IMG/VR virus record: IMGVR_UViG_2861038214_000004
DNA length: 51,754 nt
Reading direction: 5' to 3' (one strand)
From: a virus
Taxonomy: Duplodnaviria; Heunggongvirae; Uroviricota; Caudoviricetes
Shown: piece by piece, positions 1 to 51,754 of the stretch
How the letters are laid out: every line of letters begins with the position of its first letter
How positions within the stretch are numbered: the stretch's first letter is position 1
Position numbers and translations under genes: made by a program
The notes under the pieces: generated by a model
The model's input: the letters and a program-made list of their open reading frames with translations, nothing else
Told to the model about the DNA's origin: nothing
The model's database searches: none

Positions 1-477
1 ATGAAACTCATCAGTAACGATCTGCGCGATGGCGATAAATTGCCGCATCGTCATGTCTTTAACGGCATGGGTTACGATGGCGATAATATTTCACCGCATC
101 TGGCGTGGGATGATGTTCCTGCGGGAACGAAAAGTTTTGTTGTCACCTGCTACGACCCGGATGCGCCAACCGGCTCCGGCTGGTGGCACTGGGTAGTTGT
201 TAACTTACCCGCTGATACCCGCGTATTACCGCAAGGGTTTGGCTCTGGTCTGGTAGCAATGCCAGACGGCGTTTTGCAGACGCGTACCGACTTTGGTAAA
301 ACCGGGTACGATGGCGCAGCACCGCCGAAAGGCGAAACTCATCGCTACATTTTTACCGTTCACGCGCTGGATATAGAACGTATTGATGTCGATGAAGGTG
401 CCAGCGGCGCGATGGTCGGGTTTAACGTTCATTTCCACTCTCTGGCAAGCGCCTCGATTACTGCGATGTTTAGTTAA
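1..477 (+). CDS. ybhB: YbhB, PEBP/RKIP-family kinase-inhibitor-like protein; host gene flanking attB-lambda
   Basis: 158-aa ORF recognised as E. coli YbhB from recall; sits beside the lambda att core as expected for the gal-bio attB locus. Confidence 0.85.
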   Translation: MKLISNDLRDGDKLPHRHVFNGMGYDGDNISPHLAWDDVPAGTKSFVVTCYDPDAPTGSGWWHWVVVNLPADTRVLPQGFGSGLVAMPDGVLQTRTDFGKTGYDGAAPPKGETHRYIFTVHALDIERIDVDEGASGAMVGFNVHFHSLASASITAMFS

Positions 478-1138: not shown

Positions 1139-1981
1139 ATGGAACGATTGAGAGAACAATACCAAGAAAGAATAAACAGTGTCCTCCTTGACGGCTTTGA
1201 GAAGGAATTATTGGACTCTGCCTTTATTAATCTTTTGACACCGACCCCACTTAGGTTGAACAATTTTGCATATGCTCTACGTGAACTAACAAGGCATGTT
1301 TTACACCGGTTAGCACCAGATGATGAGCTTCAGCAATGCCAATGGTTTTCGCCTGATCAGACATCATCAACAGGAATTACTCGAAAACATCGCATTAAAT
1401 TTGCGATTCAAGGAGGGCTTTCTGATTTCTATGTAACGAAAAAACTTTGCATTGATGAGATAGATAAGGTGTCAAGCGAATTGATTGCTATCATCAATCG
1501 TCTAAGTGGATTTACACATATAGAAGAAGCAACATTCAAAAGCTCAATCGAAAATACTGAAAGAACCGCAGATGAATGTCTTTCAGCAACTCTTGACTTT
1601 GTTAACAAGATTGATGAACTGAGAGCCGAAGTTGCAGATAAGCTCTTCGATGATATCAATGGAGTTCTGATCGACAGAATAAACAGCGAATCGGTTGTTG
1701 AGTTAATGGAAATATCGCCACATCAGTACATTGATGAAATAACAGCAGAAAACATTTCTGTTGTTAAAATTGGCGTAAGCTCTATGGAGATGCATGTCGA
1801 TGGGAGAATAGGAGCGACCTTAATGTACGGCTCAGCATCCGATCGGCGTAAAGGAGATGGAGCTGAAATTCCGGCCTCGTTTCCCGTATACAGTGAAATG
1901 GAAGTTCTATTTAAACAACCATTGGGCAGTGCCATTAACCTAAATCAGTTTAGCGTAGATATTTCGAGCTGGTATGAGTAA
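1139..1981 (+). CDS. hypothetical protein, 280 aa, no recognised family
   Basis: Long ORF preceded by strong RBS (taggaggttag then ATG); AT-rich; between attR and the remnant-rich b region. Confidence 0.6.
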   Translation: MERLREQYQERINSVLLDGFEKELLDSAFINLLTPTPLRLNNFAYALRELTRHVLHRLAPDDELQQCQWFSPDQTSSTGITRKHRIKFAIQGGLSDFYVTKKLCIDEIDKVSSELIAIINRLSGFTHIEEATFKSSIENTERTADECLSATLDFVNKIDELRAEVADKLFDDINGVLIDRINSESVVELMEISPHQYIDEITAENISVVKIGVSSMEMHVDGRIGATLMYGSASDRRKGDGAEIPASFPVYSEMEVLFKQPLGSAINLNQFSVDISSWYE

Positions 1982-2679: not shown

Positions 2680-2873
2680 TCAATTTATTTATCAATCAGT
2701 TACCCGTAAACCTTATCATGGATTCCAATTATCGACAGCTGGGATTTTTACTTTCTTGATCTGCCCCCGGCGAATGACATATCCCCATTAACCAATGTCC
2801 GCTCCTAGCACTTAGTAGACATTAATAGATTGTAAGCGTTCCCGTCATGTAGCGGTCACCGATTGGTGACGAA

Positions 2874-3233
2874 TTGAAGCGGATCATTGATGAAAGTCGC
2901 AATAACGTGGCCAGCCCATTTATCGTTCACCAGATCCCGGAACGGCAGGTTAAACGCAGCAAAGAAGTTTCTCATCCCACTCAAGTTGCACCAGACTATT
3001 TGAGTCGGTCGTTTTCAGCTACGCGTGACAAGCTGGGTTTATATGACAAACGGCCGATGGATGAAAGGCCAACCTTTCACGAAATTCGCGCCTTAGCAGC
3101 ACATCTTTTTGATCAGCAGGGCATCGATCCACAAGGACGAATGGCACACAGCGATGCGAAATCAACTAAAATCTACACGCAAAACCATATCGACTGGGTT
3201 GTAGTTCCACATGGAGAAATTAAAGCCAGCTAG
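2874..3233 (+). pseudogene. lambda-Int-family integrase C-terminal fragment
   Basis: C-terminal ~60 aa (PTFHEIRALAAHLF...KIYTQ) align by eye with lambda Int C-terminus (PTFHELRSLSARLY...ASQY); no N-terminal or core-binding domains upstream. Confidence 0.6.
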
Positions 3234-3340
3234 CACCAAGTAAGGCATAGAATTTTATTAACCAAGGAGCATATGACCAGTAATTAATTCTTACCGGAAA
3301 GTTAGCCCTGCTAAAATTAATATTAACAAATAAAAAAATA

Positions 3341-3363
3341 GGGGCAAATATTTATATTTGCCC
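3341..3363. terminator. palindromic hairpin flanked by A/T runs; likely bidirectional terminator ending the NTase-2TM operon
   Basis: gggcaaatat..atatttgccc 10-bp stem; T-run follows on minus strand immediately after the 2TM gene stop. Confidence 0.5.
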
Positions 3364-3374
3364 TCGCAACATAT

Positions 3375-3956
3375 TTATCTTCTTTTCAGTTCCTTGGGAA
3401 GAAAAGCATCTATTTCTTCTTCAGAAAATGTTAAATCTTCTTTGTTTTTTAATGCGTCCTGTGCTTTTTTATAAGCTTCAAATGTTGTACTAGGAGAGCC
3501 TGAATACACTGAATGTAAACTCTCGAGTAACGAATCCCGCTCTGACTGCAATTGCTCGATTGGTTTTTCACCCATTGCTAAGTCTGTAAGCAATGATAAA
3601 TACTTTTCTCGGATTAACCAGATCTCATTTGCAGCCTGCTTATGTTTTTGCGCCAACTCACCAAGGTCATAATCTTTGGTATAAGCGTTAAGAATGAGAA
3701 GCAGTGTTGAAACAACAATCCCAACCCCCGTGCCTACTTCACCCGCGCCGAAAAAAGTTGCTAGAAAGCCTCCAGTAGTTAAGGCGGAGAGAATTATTTG
3801 CCAAAACTTTATAGAAGATAGTCGAGATAGGAGAATGTCTGAGCATTTTTCATGCGTCTTATGTGAGTAAACGACCCGACCATAACACTCTCTGATCTGC
3901 CCTTCTAAAACCCTTCTAGATTCAGGTGTATCCTTAGTCTGGAAATGTTGATCCAT
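3375..3956 (-). CDS. two-transmembrane-helix protein, SLATT-like candidate effector
   Basis: Two adjacent hydrophobic helices (FWQIILSALTTGGFLATFF and VGIVVSTLLLILNAY) followed by a charged helical tail; start chosen at internal ATG with GGGAG RBS (ORF track start 4013); overlaps upstream NTase gene by 23 nt. Confidence 0.6.
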   Translation of the reverse strand: MDQHFQTKDTPESRRVLEGQIRECYGRVVYSHKTHEKCSDILLSRLSSIKFWQIILSALTTGGFLATFFGAGEVGTGVGIVVSTLLLILNAYTKDYDLGELAQKHKQAANEIWLIREKYLSLLTDLAMGEKPIEQLQSERDSLLESLHSVYSGSPSTTFEAYKKAQDALKNKEDLTFSEEEIDAFLPKELKRR

Positions 3957-4815
3957 AAATCTCCCGCCATTTTTGCTTAGCCGACCATTCGCGTTTTGGG
4001 GTCGCCATTTCATGCTCTATAGCTTCGAGTGAAATGTTATAGCACCGTTTTGCTTTATATTGGAAAAGCCCTTTACCATAGACATACTGACCACTTCCTG
4101 GCGCTTTCCAATACTCCTTACTCGTATCTTGATCAGCCATCCATTTGAAGAAATCACGACTCATCAAATCGTAGTAAAGATACGACTTATCTCTATGCGC
4201 CCAATTTTCAATGAATTGATACGCAAGCGTATCAATGAGTAAACCACTTATAGGTACATCCCATTTACGCTTCCAAGCTCTTGCCATTCTACAAAGTTGC
4301 ACCAAATTGTTATTGGTAATGTTATTTCTTAACCTCATTGCAGAAATTTCTGGCTTTGGATTTGTAATCCTCCAACGGCCACCACCGTTCGCATCAGGAA
4401 ATGTGTAACTATCACTAACATTGAGGAAAGCTGGAACGACTTCAAATGTAATTCCATCATTGAACGGTACAAGGATCACTTGACCGTCACCTCTAATACT
4501 AGTGGTAGCATAGGTTTTTTCAATAGATCTCTTAACCGCTTGAAGCAATGCTGACTGCCCATTTCCTAAGTAGCTATTGTATTTTTGATACTCGGAATAT
4601 GGTAGCTGAAAAATCATATCCAGATCGCTCAAGCCTTGCGTAGCTGTGTTCCGACCATATGATCCAACGTAGAGACTATGAGAAGTATCAGAACTGCTAT
4701 CCCAAAAATCCGTATTTAAACGCTTCGTTATATTCCTATATCTAGTTGAAATTGTTCCACCATCTTTTACAGTAAGATTGGAGCAAAATCCGCAAAACCA
4801 CTCAGCTAAACCCAT
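3934..4815 (-). CDS. Pol-beta-superfamily nucleotidyltransferase, SMODS/CD-NTase-like
   Basis: Motif VGSYGRNTATQGLSDLDMIF fits the GS...DxD active site of minimal/SMODS nucleotidyltransferases; ATG at 4815 with AAGGAA RBS (track start 4821 is TTG). Confidence 0.7.
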   Translation of the reverse strand: MGLAEWFCGFCSNLTVKDGGTISTRYRNITKRLNTDFWDSSSDTSHSLYVGSYGRNTATQGLSDLDMIFQLPYSEYQKYNSYLGNGQSALLQAVKRSIEKTYATTSIRGDGQVILVPFNDGITFEVVPAFLNVSDSYTFPDANGGGRWRITNPKPEISAMRLRNNITNNNLVQLCRMARAWKRKWDVPISGLLIDTLAYQFIENWAHRDKSYLYYDLMSRDFFKWMADQDTSKEYWKAPGSGQYVYGKGLFQYKAKRCYNISLEAIEHEMATPKREWSAKQKWREIYGSTFPD

Positions 4816-5108
4816 GCTCAATTCCTTTTCTAAAATCTAATGAAAAATTCAAGGGCGCATGTTCCATGCATCATTGATAACTTTTTTCAGTCAGCTGGAG
4901 TAACATAATTGATACTAACTAGCTGTTTCTTCAAGTGAGTAACCTACTTTAGCATCAAGGTATTATACCTACCAAGCATGGGGAGAAACCACCACTTAAG
5001 CCATTGAAGTATATAGAGCAGATTTTGTTGAAAAAGCACTGTTTGTTTATACATATGAATAGTGCTTTTAACCAGCAATAGCGCGGCTCTCAGCGTTTTA
5101 CAAGCAGT

Positions 5109-5675: not shown

Positions 5676-8600
5676 TCAATGTTCGCTTCCTGTTAACTGC
5701 CGGACAAGTGCAACCAGTTCGCTTACCTGATTTTCCAGAGTGCTGATCCGGGTGCCTGCTGTTGCCAGATTTTGACGTAGCGTTGTGTTTTCCTCTTCCA
5801 GCGCGGTAACGCGATCATCTGTTTCACGGGCGACCTGAACAAGTAAACCCGTCACGGCGGCGTAGTCAACATTAAGATAGCGCGTTTCTTCGCGTAGCTC
5901 GTTGCCGTCAACGGTCGGGCCTTGCAACTCTTCACCGTAATGGATGAATGAACCAACGGCCTCCGGGATGGCCTCTTCAACTTCCTGGGCTATAACCCCG
6001 GCGCAATGTGCCCCATTCTCCTTGAGCGTGTACGTGTATCCATTAATTTTGCGGATTGCGTCAGTCGCGTTATCGATAATCTCGATATTTTCTTTCAGTC
6101 TGCGGTCTGATGACTGATTCAGTGTGGTGCAGTTAACACTTCCGTTTACAGTAAGGTTTTGCCCGTCTGTTGTTTTTTGCGCATAAAACAGATACGCAGC
6201 AGACGTGCCAACCTCAAAAACGTTTTGTCGAGTACTGGAACCCCACACCCTGATACTAACTGGTAGTTCTGAATTACCTGAATTAAGTAAAGCAAAACGA
6301 TTGCCAGTCCCTGTTTGTTTTCTAATTACTAAATCGGCAGTTGAGTTAACCTCATCTTTGTTGATGGTTAGCGCCTGCGCTGTAGCACCGTTAACAGTGC
6401 CACTTAGTAGTTGAACCGCTCCATCATCGCCATTTAACAGCACTTGAGCGCTGCTTCTGTGGTTTTTCAGGAACAACATTTTGCCTGTGCTTTCTGATGT
6501 GCCTACCGACCACGCCGAATTGGTTCCAGTGCTATCAACACCACGAACGGTACAATTCATGCTGCCATAATCTGACGTACTTCCAAGCACATCAATCCGC
6601 CCGCCACCTAATTTTGATGGAGTCGTCGAGGTTAACGACCTGACGGTTACATCCTGATTCCATCCGGAAACAACAACCTGACTCCACGCTGTCCAGTTTC
6701 CATTAACAACAAAGCGAACGTATATACGTTTTGTGTCGCTGTTAATCAGCGTTTGCATGTTCGCATAATCTGAATCCCTAACCTTACGAGTCGATTCAAC
6801 ACGGAGCAAAAAGTTACCTGTTACGCCGTCAGGCTTGTTGGTGATATTTGCACCACCTGCAGAGGATGGACAAATATAGTATTTAACTGCCCCGGCATCT
6901 GACTTGATGATGGTCAGGTTGTTAAGATTAACCGTCTGGCCGTCAATGTTTTCCGGCTCGATGGCTCCTGCTATCCCGGCACTGAACGTAGCAACGGCTG
7001 AAAACGCTGTCGTACCTTTGAAAGCCAGTTGACCACCAATCGTTAATCCCTTGTCGAGTTTCGCTTGCGTGATCAATTTGCTGTTTTGTTTCTGATCAGG
7101 ACTCTCACCAAAAGCCAGATCCCCATTAGTATCAATTCCAAGATACTTTGGGTTCATGTTGTCTAACTTAAACCCAATGGACACATTTTCAGAAGAACCA
7201 GAACGCGTTAAAACCAACGGCGTGTGCTGTACTCCATAGATGCTTAGCGTAGTTGCCGATGAGTCAGTGTCGGTATTTGCAATCTCAATCGTTCTGCTTT
7301 TAATTTTATACGCTACTGTGAGATCACGGACTTCAACCCTCCCGTCGTGACGAACAACAAGATCCCCTCCTGATGTCCCCCCTGCTGTCTTTGCCCTGAT
7401 GCGAACTTCGCCAAGCGAATCAGTGTTAGGACCAGCATAGATTATGCCGCGCTCTGTGTTATCGCCAGTATAAAACCGCAAAGCGGTGACTCCACTGTCT
7501 GCCCGCAGGAAGACTGACGGTGTACCTTTTTTGATTGTCAAGTCACCGGTCATTGTATCGCCGGTTTTTTTTACCTGCGCATCGTTCGTTACGTTGCCAA
7601 GTCCAACATCCGATTTCGACGGCTTGTTTGCCGAGCCGTATAGCTCATTGACGCTAAAAGTCCCGTTGTTAAGCCGGGCATCGTTGCCGGCATAGATCTT
7701 AATCTTCGCGGTTGAGTAGTCGATATTGATCGCTGACCACGTATCGCCGCACCGCGAGAATATACCAGAACCGTGGCTATAAATGGTCGCCGTGCTTCCG
7801 GTCGGCTTATCACCGCGCCAGAAATGACCACCTTTGTCACGCAGAGCTTTTAAGATCTCTACATCGCTCATCTTGCCGTTTGTTGATATCCCGCTACCGC
7901 CAAGACCGAAAGCGCCTGTAAGCATCGCATTTTCAAGGCCCAAATCTGCTTTAGTCGGCTTGTTTAACTGGTCGTAAATCCTTACAACGGGGCTTTCAAC
8001 ATATCCAGAAGGCGCGGCGGTTTGCTTAACAAATCCGTCTGGGATGTATAATTCTGTGCGTGCCGTCTGCGCCAGCACCGCAACCTTTGCGTCGTTAATA
8101 AACGCACCCTGGAATGCCCAAACCTCAATAAAGCCGTCACCTTTAACCAGGCCGTAACGCATCTGGTTGTTATCGGTCAGCCCGGTTGACCCTAAGCGGC
8201 GTATACTCAGATGACGAGAAACATTATCCGCACTAAGCAAAGAAGGCAGACCGCGCGCCGAGATCTCGATAAAGTCAATGTTTCCGTAAGGGGAGCCGTA
8301 GTTACCAGCGTTAGTAACCATTAGCGTTACATGACTTCTGCTGGTTCCAGGATCGGAAAGTTTCGCGATCTTGATGTAAAGAGACTCACTAGCAGTAACA
8401 ACAGGCCAATCGTATTGCGTCATCGGGCTGACGAGTCCCCCGACCTTGTCGAGATATTCTTTCGCCTTGTTCTCTGACGCTTTAGCGTTGGTTTCGCTGA
8501 CCTTTGCTGCTGACTCACTATTTTTCGCGTTGGTTTCTGATTTTTTGGCTGCTGTCGCGGAATTTGCCGATGCAGTTTGTGAGTCTGCTGCCGCCTGTGC

Positions 8601-9452
8601 GCTGTTATCCGCATTCGTCTCAGACGTTTTTGCGGCCTTCGCGGAATTTCCTGCCGCCGTTGCCGAGGAAGCTGCACTGCCGGCGCTCGAGGCTGCGCTC
8701 GTTTCTGATGATTTTGCCGCCACTTTTGAAGCCGACGCATCCCGGGCTGAGGTGGCAGCTTCTGACGCTTTCGTGGTCGCGGTGGATGCAGAAGTGGCCG
8801 CAGATTTTTGTGATGCTGCGGCATTCGTTTCTGACGTTTTCGCTGCACCGGCACTGGTGGCTGCCGCGCTTTTTGAAGACTCTGCAGCGGCAGCACTTTT
8901 TGATGCTTCAGTGGCCTTTGCTGATGCCGTTCCTGCGCTGGAAGACGCTGACTGAGCCGACGAAGCGGCCTGTCCGGCTGACGTGCTGGCTGCACGTGCT
9001 GAGCCTGCAGCATCAGTCGCATGGGTTGCCGCCTCACGGGCTGATGTGCTGGCATCGCTGGCTGACTTCTTCGCGGCTGCTGTGTTCTGCGCCACTGCGG
9101 ACGCGTTACGCGCCACCTCTTCCACCATCAGTTCAAAGCGGCGCAGTGCCTCCGGACGGACATCATCCTCCGTCATGGCACCGAGAAAATCATTCAGCGT
9201 ACCCGGTTGTGAGTCTTCATACACGGTGATGGTCCCGGCATGCGATGGCGGGAAGCCTTCCACCAACAGAATAACGCTGTACTGACCGTACTCAACGTCC
9301 ATGCTGTAACGCCCGGCTTCATCCGGATTTTCTGAGGCCACCGTGTTCGCCACCACCGTGGTGCTGTTACGTTTTGCTTTCAGCTGGATTGTGCAGTTCT
9401 GTACCGGTTTACCTGCGCCGTCTTTCAGTACACCTGAAATCTTTACTGCCAT
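5676..9452 (-). CDS. stf: side tail fibre protein Stf with Ala/Ser-rich shaft and C-terminal intramolecular-chaperone (endosialidase-type) domain
   Basis: N-terminal ~330 aa near-identical to lambda Stf (MAVKISGVLKDG...); C-terminal region contains SDRRLKENI...YTY chaperone-type motif; start set at MAVKISG (track start 9458). Confidence 0.85.
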   Translation of the reverse strand: MAVKISGVLKDGAGKPVQNCTIQLKAKRNSTTVVANTVASENPDEAGRYSMDVEYGQYSVILLVEGFPPSHAGTITVYEDSQPGTLNDFLGAMTEDDVRPEALRRFELMVEEVARNASAVAQNTAAAKKSASDASTSAREAATHATDAAGSARAASTSAGQAASSAQSASSSAGTASAKATEASKSAAAAESSKSAAATSAGAAKTSETNAAASQKSAATSASTATTKASEAATSARDASASKVAAKSSETSAASSAGSAASSATAAGNSAKAAKTSETNADNSAQAAADSQTASANSATAAKKSETNAKNSESAAKVSETNAKASENKAKEYLDKVGGLVSPMTQYDWPVVTASESLYIKIAKLSDPGTSRSHVTLMVTNAGNYGSPYGNIDFIEISARGLPSLLSADNVSRHLSIRRLGSTGLTDNNQMRYGLVKGDGFIEVWAFQGAFINDAKVAVLAQTARTELYIPDGFVKQTAAPSGYVESPVVRIYDQLNKPTKADLGLENAMLTGAFGLGGSGISTNGKMSDVEILKALRDKGGHFWRGDKPTGSTATIYSHGSGIFSRCGDTWSAINIDYSTAKIKIYAGNDARLNNGTFSVNELYGSANKPSKSDVGLGNVTNDAQVKKTGDTMTGDLTIKKGTPSVFLRADSGVTALRFYTGDNTERGIIYAGPNTDSLGEVRIRAKTAGGTSGGDLVVRHDGRVEVRDLTVAYKIKSRTIEIANTDTDSSATTLSIYGVQHTPLVLTRSGSSENVSIGFKLDNMNPKYLGIDTNGDLAFGESPDQKQNSKLITQAKLDKGLTIGGQLAFKGTTAFSAVATFSAGIAGAIEPENIDGQTVNLNNLTIIKSDAGAVKYYICPSSAGGANITNKPDGVTGNFLLRVESTRKVRDSDYANMQTLINSDTKRIYVRFVVNGNWTAWSQVVVSGWNQDVTVRSLTSTTPSKLGGGRIDVLGSTSDYGSMNCTVRGVDSTGTNSAWSVGTSESTGKMLFLKNHRSSAQVLLNGDDGAVQLLSGTVNGATAQALTINKDEVNSTADLVIRKQTGTGNRFALLNSGNSELPVSIRVWGSSTRQNVFEVGTSAAYLFYAQKTTDGQNLTVNGSVNCTTLNQSSDRRLKENIEIIDNATDAIRKINGYTYTLKENGAHCAGVIAQEVEEAIPEAVGSFIHYGEELQGPTVDGNELREETRYLNVDYAAVTGLLVQVARETDDRVTALEEENTTLRQNLATAGTRISTLENQVSELVALVRQLTGSEH

Positions 9453-9461
9453 ATTCACCCC

Positions 9462-9516: not shown

Positions 9517-10116
9517 TCAGAATTTATAACCGACACCCACGATGAAACCGTCAGTGCGCCAGTCGCCACTGCCGGAGCCTTCATAAGCAATATCAATGGC
9601 CACGGATTCGGTCGGGTTAAACTGCACGCCAGCCCCCCACGCCAGAGACGTGTTGCTGTGGCGACCGTCATCACTTCCGGTCAGCACGTCGTGCGTTTTC
9701 CCCTTGTTGTCAGTTACGCGGAGATAATCCCCGGAGAAAGTCGACACACGGCTGTAAGCCACACCCGCCATCGCATACGCGCTGAACCATTCATTCACGC
9801 GCACAGACGGCCCCGCCATTACGCTGAACCAGCGGTTACGAACGGAATCTTCATGCCAGCGGGTATCGCTGTAACGGGTAAGCTGGCGATTCTTGTCTCC
9901 TGCATAGCTGAATGACGTCACCAGCCCCAGTGTGTCCGTAAACTCATAACGGTATTTCACGTTAATCCCGTTCAGATCATCGCTGCCGGGAACGTTGGTC
10001 CGGGCATGAAGATACCCCGCGCTCAGCGTGGACTGATGTTCAGATGCCCATGCAGGCGCACCGGATACGGCCAGACAAATGGCTGCGGACAAAATGGCGG
10101 CATAAAGTTTACGCAT
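9517..10116 (-). CDS. lom: outer membrane protein Lom (Ail/Lom family)
   Basis: 199-aa ORF; C-terminal half near-identical to lambda Lom (…[26 protein letters not shown]), signal peptide present. Confidence 0.9.
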
Positions 10117-10185
10117 AATTACCTCTCGCTTTTCTGCAATAAAAAAGGCACCATTTCTGGTGCCCTTATATGGGTTATAACAACT

Positions 10186-13100
10186 TCAACGAATACTGAT
10201 GCCGGAAGCAGCTTTTTTGGTCACAATCACCGTACAGTCGGTGATATTACCTGCCCACTGATTGCCTTTATGGAAAACCTTAAACTCCAGAGTGACGCTT
10301 CCCCTGCCACTCGGCATATCAATAACCGCACTGTAGCTACCGGGAATGGCCCCTTTAGTTTCTCTGGATGCGATTAATACACCGTTTTTGCGAACTTCAA
10401 AACCATAACCCGTGTATCTTGTACCTCCCGGGTTATTACCACTTCCCGGATCGCTATACGCTATTCCGTTAAAGATAATGGGCGGAATAATGATTTGACG
10501 GTCAAAGTTATGATCATCGCTGATGGTGACTGTAACCGTCCCGTCTGGTGTTTCCGTGTTACCCCACGTACCAGCCTGTTTCGGAAATGATTTGGATACA
10601 GCTTTAACGAAGTCACCTCTGACCTGAGTCGCCTCCAGCATGCCCTTAATCGTACAGTTTTCATTTACCGTGACATTGTTGAGCGTCCCGGCGTTCGCAT
10701 TCACACTGCCACTGATATCCGCATTTTTAGCGGTCAGCTTTCCGTCCGGTGTCAGGGAAAATGCCGGTGGATTTCCACCGCTGGTAATGGTGGGGGCCGT
10801 CAGGCGTTTCAGGAACACGTCGTTCATGAATATCTGATCGCCCTGACCAACAAACATCGGTTTTGTGTTGCCATTCGCAGGATTAACCATCGCAATCCTG
10901 TCCGCCGCCAGCAGCACCTGACTCTGCATGCCGTCAGGGGTGTTCTCAATACCGGCACCAATACCCGCGATATAAAGGCGTCCGTCCTGCATCTGCTGCA
11001 GCTTCACAGCCCACATGCTGTTCAGGTTATTATTTGTATCAACCTGAACCTTCTGTATCTGCTGAATTGCCGCACTCTGGTCTTCCAGTTTCTTATTGAC
11101 GGTCTGCGTGATTTCATTGCTGACATCCGTAATGGACGTCCTGATTTCAGCCAGGTCAGGCGCAAGCTGACCGTTATCAATCTGCGTCCACAGCTCCTGA
11201 GCCAGATGGGTTTTCCCTATCTCGCCTTTGAAAAAATCCAGATAGCCGGATGCATCATCGCTCGCCCGACCGACGGCCTCCACAAATGCCGATTTGCCTA
11301 CGGTGTTCACACTGCGGATATAAAAGTAATAATCATGGCCCGGTTTGATATTGATACTGGCGGCTATCCAGTACAGCGCCGTACCAAGATAGCGGGCTGT
11401 GGTTTCAACCTGCCTGATATCCGCAATCCGCTTTTCCGAGAACCAGAACTCAAACTGTACCGTCGGATCATAAACCGCAAGATGCGGCGTGGCGGTTATC
11501 TGAAAATAGCCCGGCGTCAGCTCAATCCGCGACGGCGCTGCCGGTGCGGCGATCCGGAACAATACCGATGCCGGATCGCCCTGCTGTCCCCATGCATTTA
11601 CCGCCCGGACTGTCAGCCTGTAATTTCCCAGCGCCAGCTGCGTGAAGCGATATGTGGTTTCCGTCGTCCGGGCCGTGCTGACCAGCCGCTCACTGCCGTC
11701 GTCCGCTGCCACGGTCAGGCGAAGCATAAAGCTCACCCCCTTCACCACCTTCGGCGTGTCCCAGCGCGCCAGCACCTGGTATTCCCCGCTGTCTGCGGTG
11801 ACTTCTGCGGTCAGGTGCTGAACTGCTGGCGGCGTGACACCATTCACCGTGCCGCTCTGGTCACCGTCAAAGTGCGCCCCGTTATCCACGATGGCTTCTT
11901 TCTCCGGTACATGCTGCACGGCAGTGATGGCATACGTACCGTCATCGTTCTCACGGATACTCACACAGCGGAACAGGCGCTGACGCAGCGTCGGCAGCTT
12001 CAGCCCCCACACGCTGTACTCGGCAACGCCGTCAGGAACCCGGCTCACTTTCACCTTCACGCCGTCGGTGACGGACTGGACCTCCACGCTCACCGGATTA
12101 CCCTGCCCGTCAACCAGGCTTATCAGCGTGGTGCCGGAGGATGGCAGCGTGATTTCACGGTCGAGCGTCAGTGTCCGCGTCTGGCTGTTCACCGCCAGCA
12201 CGCGCCCGCCGGTGCTGATCCCCGCATAGTCATCATCACAGATTTCAATGACATCACCTGGTACATGGCGAAGCCCTTCGGCACCCACGCTGAAGTCCAC
12301 GGTCTGCGTTTCCAGCAGTTCTGTTTTAATCAGCCACAGCCCGGCGCGGTGCGCCTGCCCCCGACTGGTACAGCCAAACGCATCCATCTTCGTGACGTTA
12401 CGACCGTAACGGGCAATGGCCTGCGAGTCCTCCACAAGCTCTGTTGCCGTCTCCCAGCCGTTATCCGGGTCAATCCAGTTCACTTCAACGGCATTATGGC
12501 GGTCTTTCAGGGCGCTGAAGCTGTAGCGGAATGGTGCGCCATCATCCGGCATCACCACATTACTGCGGTTATAGGTCCACACCTTATCCGACGGTCGGTC
12601 CTGCACGAACGTCAGCGTCTGCCCGTTCCATACCGGCATACAGCGCATCGCCGAGCAGAAATCACTGAGCACATCCCACGCCTTGCGCTGTGTGGTCAGG
12701 TACGCATTACAGGTGATGCGCGGCTCCGTGCCGCCAAAGCCGTCCGGCACCGACTGGTCGCAATTCTGGCCGATGACATACAGCGCCCATTTATCCACAT
12801 CTGCCGCACCAAGACGTTTCCCCATGCCGTAGCGCGGGTGGGTCAGCATATCCCACAGACACCAGGCCATGTTGTTGCTGTATGCCGGTTTAAACGTTCC
12901 GTCCCAGATACCGCTGTATTGCCGCGTCTGCGGGTTATAATTCGACGGCACCTGCAGAATACGCCCGCGCAGATGATAATTACGGCTCACCTGCTGGCTG
13001 CCGAACTGCTCCGAATCCACCTGCACGCCGACCAGTGCCGTGTTCGGGTAGCACTGTTTCACATCGATGATTTCGGTGTATGACGACCAGAGCGTTTTGT

Positions 13101-13683
13101 TCTGCAGCTGGTCTGTGGTGCTGTCCGGCGTCATTCTGCGCATCCGGATATTAAACGGGCGCGGCGGCAGGTTATCCACCACCACCGAGGCCAGATACTG
13201 CGAGGTGGTTTTGCCCTTAATGGTGATGTCTTTTTCCGTCACCCAGCCACCGTTACGTTGTATCTGAACCAGCAGGCGGACTTCCGATGGATTCCGGTCC
13301 CCCTTTGAGGTGGTTTCCACCAGTGCCTGCACGCCGAAGGTAAAACGCAGACGGTCAATGTTTGCCGACGTGATGGTCCGGGTGATCGGCGTGTCATATT
13401 TCACTTCTGTACCGAGCACCGTCTCGGAGCCGGAGGATTCAAATCCCTCCGGCGGTGTCTGCTCCTGCTCACCGGCCCGGAACACCACCGTGACGCCGGA
13501 TATATTGGTATTCCCCTCACTGTCCAGCACCGGCGTACTGTTCAGCAGCACGCTTTTTAATCCATCCACCGGACCTTCAACCGGCCCTTCGCTGATGGCA
13601 TCGATCACACTCAGCAGCTGCGTGGACTTCAGGTTGTCCTTCGCTTCGCGCGGGGTATGCCCCTTACTGCTGCCTTTACCCAT
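10186..13683 (-). CDS. J: tail tip / host-specificity protein J; C-terminal receptor-binding region differs from lambda J
   Basis: 1165-aa ORF, first ~800 aa near-identical to lambda J from recall; last ~160 aa unlike the lambda LamB-binding domain. Confidence 0.9.
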
Positions 13684-13743: not shown

Positions 13744-14391
13744 TCAGCGACCAATCACCACAACCTGACCACCATCCCCTTCGTCTGCCGTGCTGATCTC
13801 CTGAGAAACCACACGTGATCCCACGCGCATTTCCCCGTACAGAACAGGCAGAACATTGCCCTGGGCAACCATGTTATCCAGTGACGAGAAATACGTGTTC
13901 TGTTTGCCGTTATCTGTACTGGCTGCCGTGGGCGTCCTGGCTTTCGGTGCCAGCATCTGCGCCACACCACCCAGGATCATACTGGCCCCTGCTGCATACA
14001 GACCCGATACAGCCGCGGCCCCCAGCCAGCCAACAGGGTTCCACCATGCCACCGCAATCAGCGCCGCACCCAGCACCGCCTGAAACACACCGCCACTTTT
14101 GGCACCCGCCAGACGCGGAACGACGTGGATCACGGCACCATTTGCCAGCGGTTCATTAAGACGGGCAGATAATTCATTTTCGCCTGCATCACGCCCGGAA
14201 ATGCGCACCTGATACCAGCCCTCATTCAGTTTCTGGCGAAACGACGGAAGCTGTGTGGCCAGCGCCCGGATGGCTTCAGCCCCCGTTTTCACACGAAGGT
14301 CGATGCGGCGGCCAAATCGTTGTAAATCCCCGTAAAGGCAGATGCGTGCCATGCCCGGTGACGCCAGAGGGAGTGTGTGCGTCGCTGCCAT
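13744..14391 (-). CDS. I: tail assembly protein I
   Basis: Matches lambda I from recall; 103-nt overlap with K as in lambda. Confidence 0.9.
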   Translation of the reverse strand: MAATHTLPLASPGMARICLYGDLQRFGRRIDLRVKTGAEAIRALATQLPSFRQKLNEGWYQVRISGRDAGENELSARLNEPLANGAVIHVVPRLAGAKSGGVFQAVLGAALIAVAWWNPVGWLGAAAVSGLYAAGASMILGGVAQMLAPKARTPTAASTDNGKQNTYFSSLDNMVAQGNVLPVLYGEMRVGSRVVSQEISTADEGDGGQVVVIGR

Positions 14392-23427: not shown

Positions 23428-24033
23428 TTACACTGGTGTGTTCAGCAAATCGTTAACGGCATCAGATGCCGGGTTACCTGCAGCCAGCGGTGCCGGTGCC
23501 CCCTGCATCAGACGATCCAGCGCAGTGTCACTGCGCGCCTGTGCACTCTGTGGTGCTGCGGCCAGAATGCGGCGGGCCGTTTCCACGGTCATACCGGGGG
23601 TTTCTGCCAGCACGCGTGCCTGTTCTTCGCGTCCGTGAGCCTCCTCACAGTTGAGGATCCCCATAATGCGGCTGTTTTCTGCCGCAACCGCTGCGGTGAT
23701 CTGCGCGTTCACGTCCGGCTGCGCCGCGCTGGCGTTTTCGCCCTCCGTCGCTGGCACCACGTCAGTAACGTCAGCCTGCGAAGCAGTGGCTGAAACAGTT
23801 GTTGATTGAGTCTCTTTGGTCATTCGCCCTCCTGAGAGACGGGATTTACGTGCATCCAGTGCATCACGCATAACGGTGATCGCATCGGTGCTGTTGACAA
23901 GTTCATCAGCCAGTCCGGCATCAATGGCCTCCTGACCGCTGTACACTGCAGCCTCGGTATCCAGCACAGCCTGCACGGACAGGCCGGTATATGCCGACAC
24001 CTTCTGTGCAAACATCCGGCGGGTTGCATCCAT
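23428..24033 (-). CDS. nu3: scaffolding protein Nu3 (in-frame internal start within C)
   Basis: Internal Met (MDATRRMF) 201 codons from the C stop, as in lambda nested C/Nu3 arrangement. Confidence 0.6.
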   Translation of the reverse strand: MDATRRMFAQKVSAYTGLSVQAVLDTEAAVYSGQEAIDAGLADELVNSTDAITVMRDALDARKSRLSGGRMTKETQSTTVSATASQADVTDVVPATEGENASAAQPDVNAQITAAVAAENSRIMGILNCEEAHGREEQARVLAETPGMTVETARRILAAAPQSAQARSDTALDRLMQGAPAPLAAGNPASDAVNDLLNTPV

Positions 24034-24727
24034 CCGGGACTGCAATGTTTCCCGGACATCATCCGGTAGATGGCTGTAGGGGTTGCCATCCACCTTATGG
24101 CTGCCGCTGTAAATCAGCGTGATTTCCACGCCCTGTTTCTCCAGTGCAGCGCCGTAATTACTGTGAGCCATCATGACGCCGATGGAGCCTGTCCGGGCGG
24201 TCTGCGTGACCAGACGCCGGGAGGCGGCACTGGCAAGCAGCTGACCTGCGCTGCAGTTCATGTCATTGGCCAGCGCCCATACCGGCTTTATGTCACGCAC
24301 ACGGGCGATGATGTCAGCGCAGTCAAATGCCCCCGCCACCATCCCGCCGGGCGTGTCCATATCGAGCAGAATGCCGTCCACCATCGGATCGCTGGCAGCC
24401 TGTTGCAGACGGGCGATAATGCCGTTGTAACCGGTCATCCCCGAGTACGGCTGCAGCGCCCGCGTCCGGCTGACCAGCGTGCCGGACACCGGCAGCACGG
24501 CGATGCCGTTCATGACCTGATAACTGCGGGCCTGTCGTGGTCCGTCATCATCACCGGATAATGCCAGCGTCGCGAGTGCCTCCTGGGCAGTCAGGCTGTC
24601 GCCGGACACCGCATCCATCAGGCGGCTGATCCCAAGCTGGCCTGCAAGCGCACAAAAGAAAACCCGCGCATAGGCGGGTTCAAGCATCAGCGGCTCATTA
24701 AAAGCCATGCTGGCAATATGCGGGAGA

Positions 24728-24747
<20 letters not shown>
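23428..24747 (-). CDS. C: capsid assembly protease C; apparent GTG start
   Basis: 439 aa matching lambda C; first codon here is GTG preceded by AGGAGG; overlaps B 3' end. Confidence 0.85.
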
Positions 24748-28428
<3,681 letters not shown>

Positions 28429-49069: not shown

Positions 49070-49288
49070 ATGTACTTGACACTTCAGGAGTGGAACGCAC
49101 GCCAACGACGCCCAAGAAGCCTTGAAACAGTTCGTCGATGGGTACGCGAGTGCAGGATATTCCCTCCTCCGGTTAAGGATGGAAGAGAGTATCTGTTCCA
49201 CGAATCAGCGGTAAAGGTTGACTTAAATCGACCAGTAACAGGTAGCCTTTTGAAGAGGATCAGAAATGGGAAGAAGGCGAAGTCATGA
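49070..49288 (+). CDS. xis: excisionase Xis
   Basis: 72 aa, matches lambda Xis. Confidence 0.95.
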   Translation: MYLTLQEWNARQRRPRSLETVRRWVRECRIFPPPVKDGREYLFHESAVKVDLNRPVTGSLLKRIRNGKKAKS

Positions 49289-50336
49289 GCGCCGGGATTT
49301 ACCCCCTAACCTTTATATAAGAAACAATGGATATTACTGCTACAGGGACCCAAGGACGGGTAAAGAGTTTGGATTAGGCCGAGACAGGCGAATCGCAATC
49401 ACTGAAGCTATACAGGCCAACATTGAGTTATTTTCAGGACACAAACACAAGCCTCTGACAGCGAGAATCAACAGTGATAATTCCGTTACGTTACATTCAT
49501 GGCTTGATCGCTACGAAAAAATCCTGGCCAGCAGAGGAATCAAGCAGAAGACACTCATAAATTACATGAGCAAAATTAAAGCAATAAGGAGGGGTCTGCC
49601 TGATGCTCCACTTGAAGACATCACCACAAAAGAAATTGCGGCAATGCTCAATGGATACATAGACGAGGGCAAGGCGGCGTCAGCCAAGTTAATCAGATCA
49701 ACACTGAGCGATGCATTCCGAGAGGCAATAGCTGAAGGCCATATAACAACAAACCCTGTCGCTGCCACTCGCGCAGCAAAATCAGAGGTAAGGAGATCAA
49801 GACTTACGGCTGACGAATACCTGAAAATTTATCAAGCAGCAGAATCATCACCATGTTGGCTCAGACTTGCAATGGAACTGGCTGTTGTTACCGGGCAGCG
49901 AGTTGGTGATTTATGCGAAATGAAGTGGTCTGATATCGTAGATGGATATCTTTATGTCGAGCAAAGCAAAACAGGCGTAAAAATTGCCATCCCAACAACA
50001 TTGCATGTTGATGCTCTCGGGATATCAATGAAGGAAACACTTGATAAATGCAAAAAGATTCTTGGCGGAGAAACCATAATTGCATCTACTCGTCGTGAAC
50101 CGCTTTCATCCGGCACAGTATCAAGGTATTTTATGCGCGCACGAAAAGCATCAGGTCTTTCCTTCGAAGGGGATCCGCCTACCTTTCACGAGTTGCGCAG
50201 TTTGTCTGCAAGACTCTATGAGAAGCAGATAAGCGATAAGTTTGCTCAACATCTTCTCGGGCATAAGTCGGACACCATGGCATCACAGTATCGTGATGAC
50301 AGAGGCAGGGAGTGGGACAAAATTGAAATCAAATAA
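49266..50336 (+). CDS. int: integrase Int (tyrosine recombinase)
   Basis: 356 aa, matches lambda Int; 3' end 73 bp from the att core. Confidence 0.95.
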   Translation: MGRRRSHERRDLPPNLYIRNNGYYCYRDPRTGKEFGLGRDRRIAITEAIQANIELFSGHKHKPLTARINSDNSVTLHSWLDRYEKILASRGIKQKTLINYMSKIKAIRRGLPDAPLEDITTKEIAAMLNGYIDEGKAASAKLIRSTLSDAFREAIAEGHITTNPVAATRAAKSEVRRSRLTADEYLKIYQAAESSPCWLRLAMELAVVTGQRVGDLCEMKWSDIVDGYLYVEQSKTGVKIAIPTTLHVDALGISMKETLDKCKKILGGETIIASTRREPLSSGTVSRYFMRARKASGLSFEGDPPTFHELRSLSARLYEKQISDKFAQHLLGHKSDTMASQYRDDRGREWDKIEIK

Positions 50337-50409
50337 TGATTTTATTTTGACTGATAGTGACCTGTTCGTTGCAACAAATTGATAAGCAATGCTTTTTTAT
50401 AATGCCAAC
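50337..50409. other. attP P'-arm portion of attL with arm-type Int sites
   Basis: Matches rc of lambda P' arm (…AGTCACTATCAGTCAAAATAAAATC…). Confidence 0.7.
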
Positions 50410-50424
50410 TTAGTATAAAAAAGC
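50410..50424. repeat. attL: att common core on the attL side (TTAGTATAAAAAAGC)
   Basis: Exact 15-bp core identical to 567..581, with P'-arm on the int side and host sequence on the ybhC side. Confidence 0.85.
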
Positions 50425-50470
50425 AGGCTTCAACGGATTCATTTTTCTATTTCATAGCCCGGAGCAACCT

Positions 50471-51754
50471 GTGAACACATTTTCAGTTTCCCGTCTGGCG
50501 CTGGCATTGGCTTTTGGCGTGACGCTGACCGCCTGTAGCTCAACCCCGCCCGATCAACGTCCTTCTGATCAAACCGCGCCTGGTACCTCTTCTCGCCCGA
50601 TTCTGTCGGCAAAAGAAGCGCAGAATTTCGATGCTCAACACTATTTTGCATCCCTGACACCAGGTGCTGCAGCGTGGAATCCTTCCCCGATTACCCTGCC
50701 TGCGCAACCTGACTTTGTTGTCGGCCCGGCGGGCACTCAAGGTGTAACGCATACCACGATTCAGGCGGCGGTAGATGCGGCAATTATCAAGCGTACCAAC
50801 AAGCGCCAGTATATTGCCGTGATGCCTGGTGAGTATCAGGGAACGGTATATGTCCCTGCCGCTCCGGGTGGAATTACTCTGTACGGTACAGGTGAAAAAC
50901 CGATTGATGTGAAGATTGGGCTTTCCCTTGATGGTGGCATGAGCCCTGCCGACTGGCGTCACGACGTCAACCCGCGCGGCAAATATATGCCAGGTAAACC
51001 AGCGTGGTATATGTACGATAGCTGCCAGAGCAAACGCAGCGACAGTATCGGTGTTCTCTGCTCTGCGGTCTTCTGGTCACAAAACAATGGCCTGCAACTG
51101 CAAAATCTGACCATCGAAAACACGCTGGGCGATAGCGTAGATGCAGGTAACCATCCGGCGGTGGCACTGCGTACTGATGGTGACCAGGTACAGATTAACA
51201 ACGTTAACATTCTCGGTCGTCAGAACACCTTCTTTGTCACCAACAGCGGTGTGCAGAACCGTCTGGAAACGAATCGTCAGCCGCGTACGCTGGTGACCAA
51301 CAGCTACATTGAAGGGGATGTGGATATCGTTTCTGGTCGCGGCGCAGTGGTGTTCGATAACACCGAATTCCGCGTGGTGAACTCACGTACTCAGCAAGAA
51401 GCGTATGTGTTTGCACCGGCTACGCTGTCCAACATTTACTACGGTTTCCTCGCCGTAAACAGCCGTTTCAATGCTTTCGGTGATGGTGTGGCGCAACTGG
51501 GCCGCTCGCTGGATGTTGATGCCAATACCAACGGTCAGGTGGTGATCCGTGATAGCGCCATCAACGAAGGTTTTAACACGGCTAAACCGTGGGCCGATGC
51601 GGTGATCTCTAATCGTCCGTTTGCGGGTAATACCGGCAGCGTAGATGATAACGACGAAATACAGCGCAATCTGAATGACACTAACTACAACCGCATGTGG
51701 GAATACAATAACCGCGGCGTGGGTAGTAAAGTGGTTGCAGAGGCGAAGAAGTAA
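50471..51754 (+). CDS. ybhC: YbhC, outer-membrane lipoprotein with pectinesterase-like fold; host gene flanking attB-lambda
   Basis: 427-aa ORF with lipoprotein signal (LTACSS); recognised as E. coli YbhC from recall. Confidence 0.85.
   Translation: MNTFSVSRLALALAFGVTLTACSSTPPDQRPSDQTAPGTSSRPILSAKEAQNFDAQHYFASLTPGAAAWNPSPITLPAQPDFVVGPAGTQGVTHTTIQAAVDAAIIKRTNKRQYIAVMPGEYQGTVYVPAAPGGITLYGTGEKPIDVKIGLSLDGGMSPADWRHDVNPRGKYMPGKPAWYMYDSCQSKRSDSIGVLCSAVFWSQNNGLQLQNLTIENTLGDSVDAGNHPAVALRTDGDQVQINNVNILGRQNTFFVTNSGVQNRLETNRQPRTLVTNSYIEGDVDIVSGRGAVVFDNTEFRVVNSRTQQEAYVFAPATLSNIYYGFLAVNSRFNAFGDGVAQLGRSLDVDANTNGQVVIRDSAINEGFNTAKPWADAVISNRPFAGNTGSVDDNDEIQRNLNDTNYNRMWEYNNRGVGSKVVAEAKK

Follow-up and report, generated by a model that had tools for sequence, protein, structure and literature searches.

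Which outer membrane receptor does a lambda-like phage recognize when most of its central tail fiber protein J closely follows that of lambda and the tip of the protein does not? The question is raised by gene J in a stretch of 51,754 nucleotides (hereafter the window) from the IMG/VR virus record IMGVR_UViG_2861038214_000004. The original prediction, made from the letters of the window, held that the first ~800 amino acids of J are close to lambda J, that the C-terminal ~160 do not resemble the LamB-binding domain of lambda, and that the phage probably uses a receptor other than LamB.

The window begins with ybhB (positions 1-477) at the element edge; at its other end, a tyrosine recombinase ORF of 356 amino acids (49266-50336), presumably int, is followed by ybhC (50471-51754). 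On the E. coli map, we take the ybhB/ybhC interval to be the lambda attachment site. The element spans ybhB to int-ybhC in lambda gene order and is a lambda-like prophage integrated at this site. Its J region is 100% identical in two E. coli chromosomes, strain F5 and NZ_LT838196. In the RefSeq annotation, the related F5 prophage carries I, K, L, M, H, T, G, V and U in lambda order. We rejected this prophage as an identical stand-in for the window, as the two are only 99.2% identical over 24 kb, and for the same reason the pseudogene annotations of F5 are not transferable to the window.

Gene J, encoding the central tail fiber or tip attachment protein, occupies positions 10186..13683 of the minus strand as an intact ORF of 3498 nt (1165 amino acids), and the C-terminus of its translation exactly matches the sequence quoted with the original prediction. 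The position of the gene within the tail cluster (...H-M-L-K-I-J-lom-stf) is that of a lambda-type J. The gene for tail assembly protein I (13744..14391, minus strand; Pfam Lambda_tail_I, E = 7e-23) is the immediate upstream neighbor. Shortly after the J stop codon, a consensus scan detected a terminator-like hairpin with a T-run (10144..10167, minus strand), consisting of a 10-pair stem followed by TTTTATTGCAG; phages 434 and Ayreon have an annotated terminator in the corresponding position behind J. Next comes lom (9517..10116, minus strand), which encodes an Ail/Lom outer-membrane protein (Pfam Ail_Lom, E = 1.5e-120; PHROG 108 "Lom outer membrane protein") and follows J as it does in lambda and 434. 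A repeat scan around J gave nothing meaningful.

Beyond lom, the side tail fiber gene (5676..9458, minus strand) encodes a protein of 1260 amino acids with a Pfam phage_tail_N domain at residues 3-136 and a Peptidase_S74 intramolecular chaperone at residues 1117-1168. While the gene order J-terminator-lom-stf is shared with phage 434, the side tail fiber itself closely matches 434 Stf only in its N-terminal ~120 amino acids, and beyond this anchor it is of neither the 434 nor the lambda type. This fiber is a second host-range determinant of the same virion.

Assignment of the protein to the lambda-type tip attachment family relied on its full length. In a profile search, NCBIfam lambda_TipJ covered residues 1-1165 with 2337.7 bits (cut-off 1950), and six Pfam gpJ domains exceeded their cut-offs in the order FNIII-A_GpJ, Phage-tail_3, Ig_J, Ig_J_second, Phage_Tail_Tip and Ig_GpJ_C. 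A phmmer comparison with the solved lambda gpJ chains 8iyk_J and 8xcj_Z was end-to-end (E = 8e-51), reaching the penultimate residue. The tip matched Pfam PF12421 (Ig_GpJ_C) at residues 1029-1164, over profile positions 1-134 of 135 (E = 1.2e-25), which places it by sequence in the family of gpJ C-terminal Ig-like receptor-binding domains (RBDs). A single-sequence AlphaFold2 model of the domain was all-beta but unreliable (mean pLDDT 46.6). Judged by sequence homology, the tip is another allele of the same RBD, not an unrelated domain. The statement that the C-terminal residues "do not resemble" the lambda domain therefore goes too far: at ~40% identity with indels, the tip is still a homologous Ig-like gpJ RBD.

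Lambda J (NC_001416; protein P03749) served as the reference for a comparison by segment. The backbone, comprising the hub and the FNIII/Ig domains (aa 1-812; 11248..13683, minus strand), is identical to lambda J at 793 of 812 residues (97.7%), in full agreement with the closeness predicted for the first ~800 amino acids; its identity to 434 and 21 reaches 98.3% and 98.4%. In the variable middle (aa 813-920; 10924..11247, minus strand), identity to lambda is 45%, with 28 alignment gaps and a net length difference of ~30 amino acids. A conserved island (aa 921-1005; 10669..10923, minus strand) is 85.9% identical to lambda, and the tip (aa 1006-1165 plus the stop codon; 10186..10668, minus strand) 41.6% identical, with 17 gap positions. 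The diverged middle block and the conserved island between this block and the tip had been missed in the original prediction.

The DNA is 95% identical to lambda at gene nucleotides 2901-3000 (window ~10684-10783); from nucleotide 3001 identity is 64% in the first 100 nucleotides and then 43-56% up to the stop codon. Because of this drop, the interval first proposed as swapped, 10186-10700 (aa 995-1165), frames the diverged block very closely. If the tip differed from lambda at the same rate as the backbone (2.3%), ~4 changes would be expected in 160 amino acids, whereas more than 85 substitutions plus indels were observed, so the divergence of the tip is not due to chance. With ~40% identity over the last 145-160 amino acids, the C-terminal receptor-binding region is indeed a different module from that of lambda, as had been proposed.

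The segments of J also differ in their affiliation to other lambdoid phages. The middle is of the phage 21 type and longer than that of lambda: it is 97.2% identical to 21, 100% to phi458 and 99.1% to WGPS6, while its identity to lambda and 434 is 45-46%, the alignment having 28 gap positions. The island is 84-100% identical to lambda, 434, 21, phi458 and WGPS6, and 78.8% identical to phi330. The DNA follows the same pattern. Gene nucleotides 1-2400 do not discriminate among lambda, 434 and 21 (88-100% identity to each); nucleotides 2401-2900 show 91-99% identity to 21 versus 24-85% to lambda and 434; and nucleotides 3001-3498 show 88-97% identity to 434 versus 41-66% to lambda and 21. The affiliation therefore changes from the 21 type to the 434 type within gene nucleotides ~2850-3000, inside the conserved stretch. 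The GC content is ~60% in the J backbone and 47-48% in the tip.

Written as middle/tip types, lambda is lambda/lambda, 434 is lambda/434 and 21 is 21/21, while the window, phi458 and WGPS6 combine a 21-type middle with a 434-type tip. Middle and RBD modules are combined independently of each other across lambda, 434, 21, WGPS6, phi330 and the window. The island is a likely recombination junction between the two; the fusion point of engineered gpJ chimeras is lambda residue 964, which maps to amino acid 992 of the window protein. We infer that the mosaic most likely arose by homologous recombination in this conserved stretch of J, an event that would have joined a 434-type RBD to a phage-21-type middle and the common backbone.

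To define the allele class of the tip, the RBD was compared over aa 1021-1165 with the J proteins of phage 434 (OL657226), the laboratory host-range hybrid lambda h434 imm21 (OM418627) and phage 21 (OL657228), among others. It is identical at 139 of 145 positions (95.9%) to both 434 and lambda h434 imm21, sharing their loop lengths and C-terminal end; identity is 144/145 to Ayreon and to Stx2c_PV98-693, and 143/145 to phi458. Aligning the C-terminus with other J proteins had been suggested as a check on the original prediction, and the alignment confirmed that the tip is not lambda-like, with 40.3% identity to lambda and 42.3% to phage 21. Identity to phi330 is 44.5%, so that all three of these lie at or below 45%. 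Among the reference RBDs themselves, phage 21 is 50% identical to lambda and phi330 is 81% identical to phage 21.

A translated search of the last 164 amino acids against 50,697 phage records returned 74 records at 90% identity or more, 169 below 60% and none between. Since identity across these 243 records is bimodal and lacks intermediates, the allele classes of the gpJ tip are discrete. The near-identical set includes Ayreon (recorded host K12), phi458 (recorded host MC1061), cdtI, ev099, Evi, Tritos, mEp332 and many O157 Stx1a and Stx2c phages. By these alignments, the J tip is a phage-434-type (h434) host-range allele of the gpJ RBD.

Two other assignments of the tip were considered and rejected. 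The best PDB match, 9wca, pointed to the phi330/A8 class; its entry "A8 gpJ 713" is an OmpC-binding chimera engineered by Brödel et al., and the A8 tip appears identical in type to the phi330 tip. Like the tip studied here, phi330/A8 is a natural non-lambda gpJ RBD allele of E. coli prophages, it uses OmpC (as inferred for the window) and it is exchangeable at the same conserved junction; however, at 44.5% RBD identity it represents another allele class, closest to the RBD of phage 21. The type of the engineered 1A2 chimera, which accepts the OmpC of EDL933 but not that of K-12, was dismissed at ~40% identity and a different C-terminal end, in a comparison made with an OCR-damaged 1A2 sequence.

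We take protein Ib to be OmpC in porin nomenclature. Hantke (1978) names the major outer-membrane protein Ib as the receptor of phage 434. When lambda is given the J gene of 434, it binds OmpC (PMC11101478; PMC3509688), and in published AlphaFold3 models the 434 J RBD docks onto OmpC through three of its loops (PMC12502783). In the lambda h434 hybrid (OM418627), 434 DNA starts within J, between aa 681 and 752, and extends at least through lom, stf and the fiber chaperone gene; the hybrid therefore does not isolate the effect of the RBD. Since the RBD of the window is ~96% identical to those of 434 and lambda h434, both OmpC users, the likely receptor is OmpC and not LamB. We hold this assignment as probable, with good confidence, and that the tip is not of the lambda type with greater confidence still. 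Homology thus favors the original proposal of a receptor other than LamB. In the papers covered, a literature search returned no receptor data for this prophage or for its near relatives Ayreon, phi458, cdtI, mEp332, Evi, the ev phages or the Stx1a/Stx2c phages, and a large preprint on receptor prediction deals with Drexlerviridae-type GpJ, not with the 434-type class.

Could the phage still use LamB, its tip being a diverged yet functionally lambda-like domain? The tip does belong to the same domain family as the lambda RBD, and the RBD of phage 21, whose native receptor is LamB, retains this receptor at only 50% identity to lambda. Yet the RBD of the window shares 40% of its residues with lambda and 42% with 21, versus 96% with the OmpC-dependent 434. 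In the cryo-EM structure of lambda gpJ with LamB, the RBD is a trimeric Ig-like domain with four distal loops inserted in the lumen of the LamB trimer (PMC11101478); in the window, indels are found at each of the four loop regions, all of which differ in length from lambda. LamB use is accordingly most improbable, the least credible of the alternatives considered here, and OmpC remains the preferred receptor.

An identity of 95.9% is no guarantee that the receptor of 434 is retained, because few substitutions can shift the receptor choice of gpJ. One mutation in the receptor-binding protein of phage 21 adds OmpC use, and its J can be retargeted by single mutations (PMC11336670); the gain of OmpF function by lambda J depends critically on two residues, 1012 and 1107 (PMC6646904). 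The choice is labile, and the OmpC-dependent phi330 RBD is 81% identical to the LamB-binding RBD of phage 21. The tip may then be 434-type in sequence and shifted in specificity, toward another porin such as OmpF or toward a subset of OmpC variants, in an arms race with a polymorphic receptor.

The distribution of variation within the class gives this reading some appeal. Across eleven class members, the RBD varies at about a dozen positions only (1032/1036/1037/1047, 1077/1078, 1127/1129 and 1136/1138/1142/1143), which lie at or beside the natural indel hot-spots near lambda residues 1012, 1048 and 1107 and coincide with the predicted OmpC-contacting loops of 434 and phi330. Several of the six RBD differences from 434 lie in or beside loops predicted to contact the porin, and two engineered OmpC-binding gpJ chimeras accept different OmpC variants (PMC11338833). 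If Q1036/A1037, D1047, S1077, R1127 and W1143 were switches that tune the fiber to OmpC variants or to another porin, which we regard as doubtful, the prophage and phage 434 would have different host ranges, and the class would reflect an ongoing arms race with polymorphic OmpC.

The residues of the window argue against such a shift. Its RBD has no private substitution, as each residue state recurs in another class member. The sole difference from Ayreon and Stx2c_PV98 is N1047D, and 434 and lambda h434, which use OmpC on K-12, both carry D1047; W1143 likewise corresponds to W1115 of lambda h434. Relative to 434, the RBD shows a dS of 0.35 and a dN/dS of 0.08, and across the class dN/dS is 0.08-0.29, with no signature of positive selection across the domain. 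A substantial dS combined with such a low dN/dS indicates that the 434-type RBD is old and under purifying selection. Altered specificity is therefore unlikely, although it is the least remote of the alternatives.

A different objection is that J may be a decaying remnant in a defective prophage, its tip having no function. In the annotation of the closely related F5 prophage, the S49 head protease gene contains an internal stop and the side-fiber gene is fragmented, and similar lambdoid J-lom DNA occurs at many places on E. coli chromosomes (median 2, maximum 16 per genome). In the window, by contrast, J is full-length at 1165 amino acids, the protease ORF (23428-24882) and the side-fiber ORF are open, the element runs from ybhB to int-ybhC in lambda gene order, and the RBD is under strong purifying selection. 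We consider decay very unlikely, and the tip is better read as a domain of the 434 type that probably binds OmpC.

How such a tip would act can be pictured by analogy with lambda, where receptor binding spreads the RBD and the tail tip opens (PMC11101478). The distal loops of the C-terminal Ig-like domain, itself a trimer, would enter a trimeric porin of the outer membrane, and this contact would cause the tail tip to open and the DNA to be ejected; the porin docked would most likely be OmpC, in the same way as for 434. Lambda gpJ (P03749; PDB 8iyk, 8xcj) and the window protein share the family, domain order, gene neighborhood and Ig-like RBD fold family, and presumably the trimeric porin-docking mechanism. 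They differ in the RBD, in the middle segment and in the receptor, which is LamB for lambda and putatively OmpC here. The 434 protein shares the RBD class but has a lambda-type middle (46% identity) in place of the 21-type middle of the window, and phage 21 J shows the converse, being close in the backbone and middle and different in the RBD.

Modular exchange of J tips among lambdoid phages, and the OmpC host range of 434, are textbook knowledge, and natural J tips already serve to retarget lambda particles. For annotation, the value of the result is that this J can be described as carrying a 434-type, presumably OmpC-binding RBD, which predicts an OmpC-dependent and not a LamB-dependent prophage.

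We tallied the prevalence of the tip types in 5426 complete E. coli genomes. The 434-type tip DNA, a query of 495 nt, was present at a coverage of at least 80% in 2091 of the 5426 genomes (39%), with 202 matching records at least 99% identical. The feature is an ordinary, long known and very common natural variant. With 98 genomes (<2%) against 2091, it is the lambda tip that is unusual among E. coli prophages, and since lambda's own tip is so rare in E. coli genomes, being unlike lambda is no sign of novelty for a J protein. All of the lambda-type matches were at least 99% identical, and the five matches listed are K-12, B and DE3 laboratory strains.

Tip queries from J, the tail-tip protein that forms the central tail fibre, were compared with the complete E. 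coli genomes, using window 10186-10680 for the 434-type receptor-binding tip and L001:3510-3904, from lambda, for the lambda-type tip. A 434-type tip is carried by 2091 of the 5426 genomes and a lambda-type tip by only 98; the five lambda-type records listed all come from laboratory strains (K-12, B and DE3). The OmpC-dependent tip of phage phi330 (L003:17482-20610) and of the engineered gpJ chimera A8 is 81% identical to the LamB-dependent tip of phage 21 (L006:1694-5176), and therefore allele class at such identity does not alone define the receptor.

Lambda h434 imm21 is a laboratory hybrid of lambda that carries 434 DNA from within J at least as far as the fibre chaperone gene. When its J (L007:506-3919) is aligned with that of phage 434 (L005:1506-4919), the sequence is lambda-type up to a switch located between residues 681 and 752, and 434-type thereafter. 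The 434-derived part differs from sequenced 434 at two sites, N1050 (D in 434) and W1115 (R in 434), both of which fall in loop regions that vary across the 434-type class.

A second variable module of J was observed at aa 813-920 (window 10924-11247), within the Pfam Phage_Tail_Tip match and the region of the alpha-helical shaft of lambda. This module belongs to the phage-21 type, with 97% identity to its counterpart in 21, and among lambdoid phages it assorts independently of the tip. Its counterparts in lambda and 434 are ~30 aa shorter, so the central fibre of the window phage is probably longer.

The side tail fibre ORF (window 5676-9458, minus strand; 1260 aa) begins with ~120 aa matching the anchor of lambda/434 Stf. 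Long Ala/Ser-rich repeats come next, then a distal part that does not resemble 434 Stf, and the C-terminal region carries an intramolecular chaperone domain of the Peptidase_S74 family. The interval from the side fibre to ybhB, the position of the lambda b region, contains a SMODS nucleotidyltransferase (window 3934-4821, minus strand) overlapping a SLATT_4 two-TM effector (window 3375-4013, minus strand), a pair that looks like a two-gene defence system. The same interval also encodes a protein (window 1139-1981, plus strand) in which the 'pPIWI-associating nuclease' domain occurs twice.

At one end the prophage, ~50 kb in length and retaining the lambda gene order, borders ybhB (window 1-477); at the other lies a tyrosine recombinase ORF of 356 aa, presumably int, followed by ybhC (together window 49266-51754). 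From the E. coli map, we take these borders to mark the classical attachment site of lambda. An S49 head protease/scaffold ORF (window 23428-24882, minus strand), which matches the Peptidase_S49 domain, is open, whereas its homologue in E. coli strain F5, which carries a related prophage, is annotated with an internal stop. Likewise, the side-fibre locus of F5 is annotated as fragments or pseudogenes, while the ORF in the window is open. F5 and the window share only 99.2% identity over 24 kb, and closely related prophage copies thus vary in intactness.
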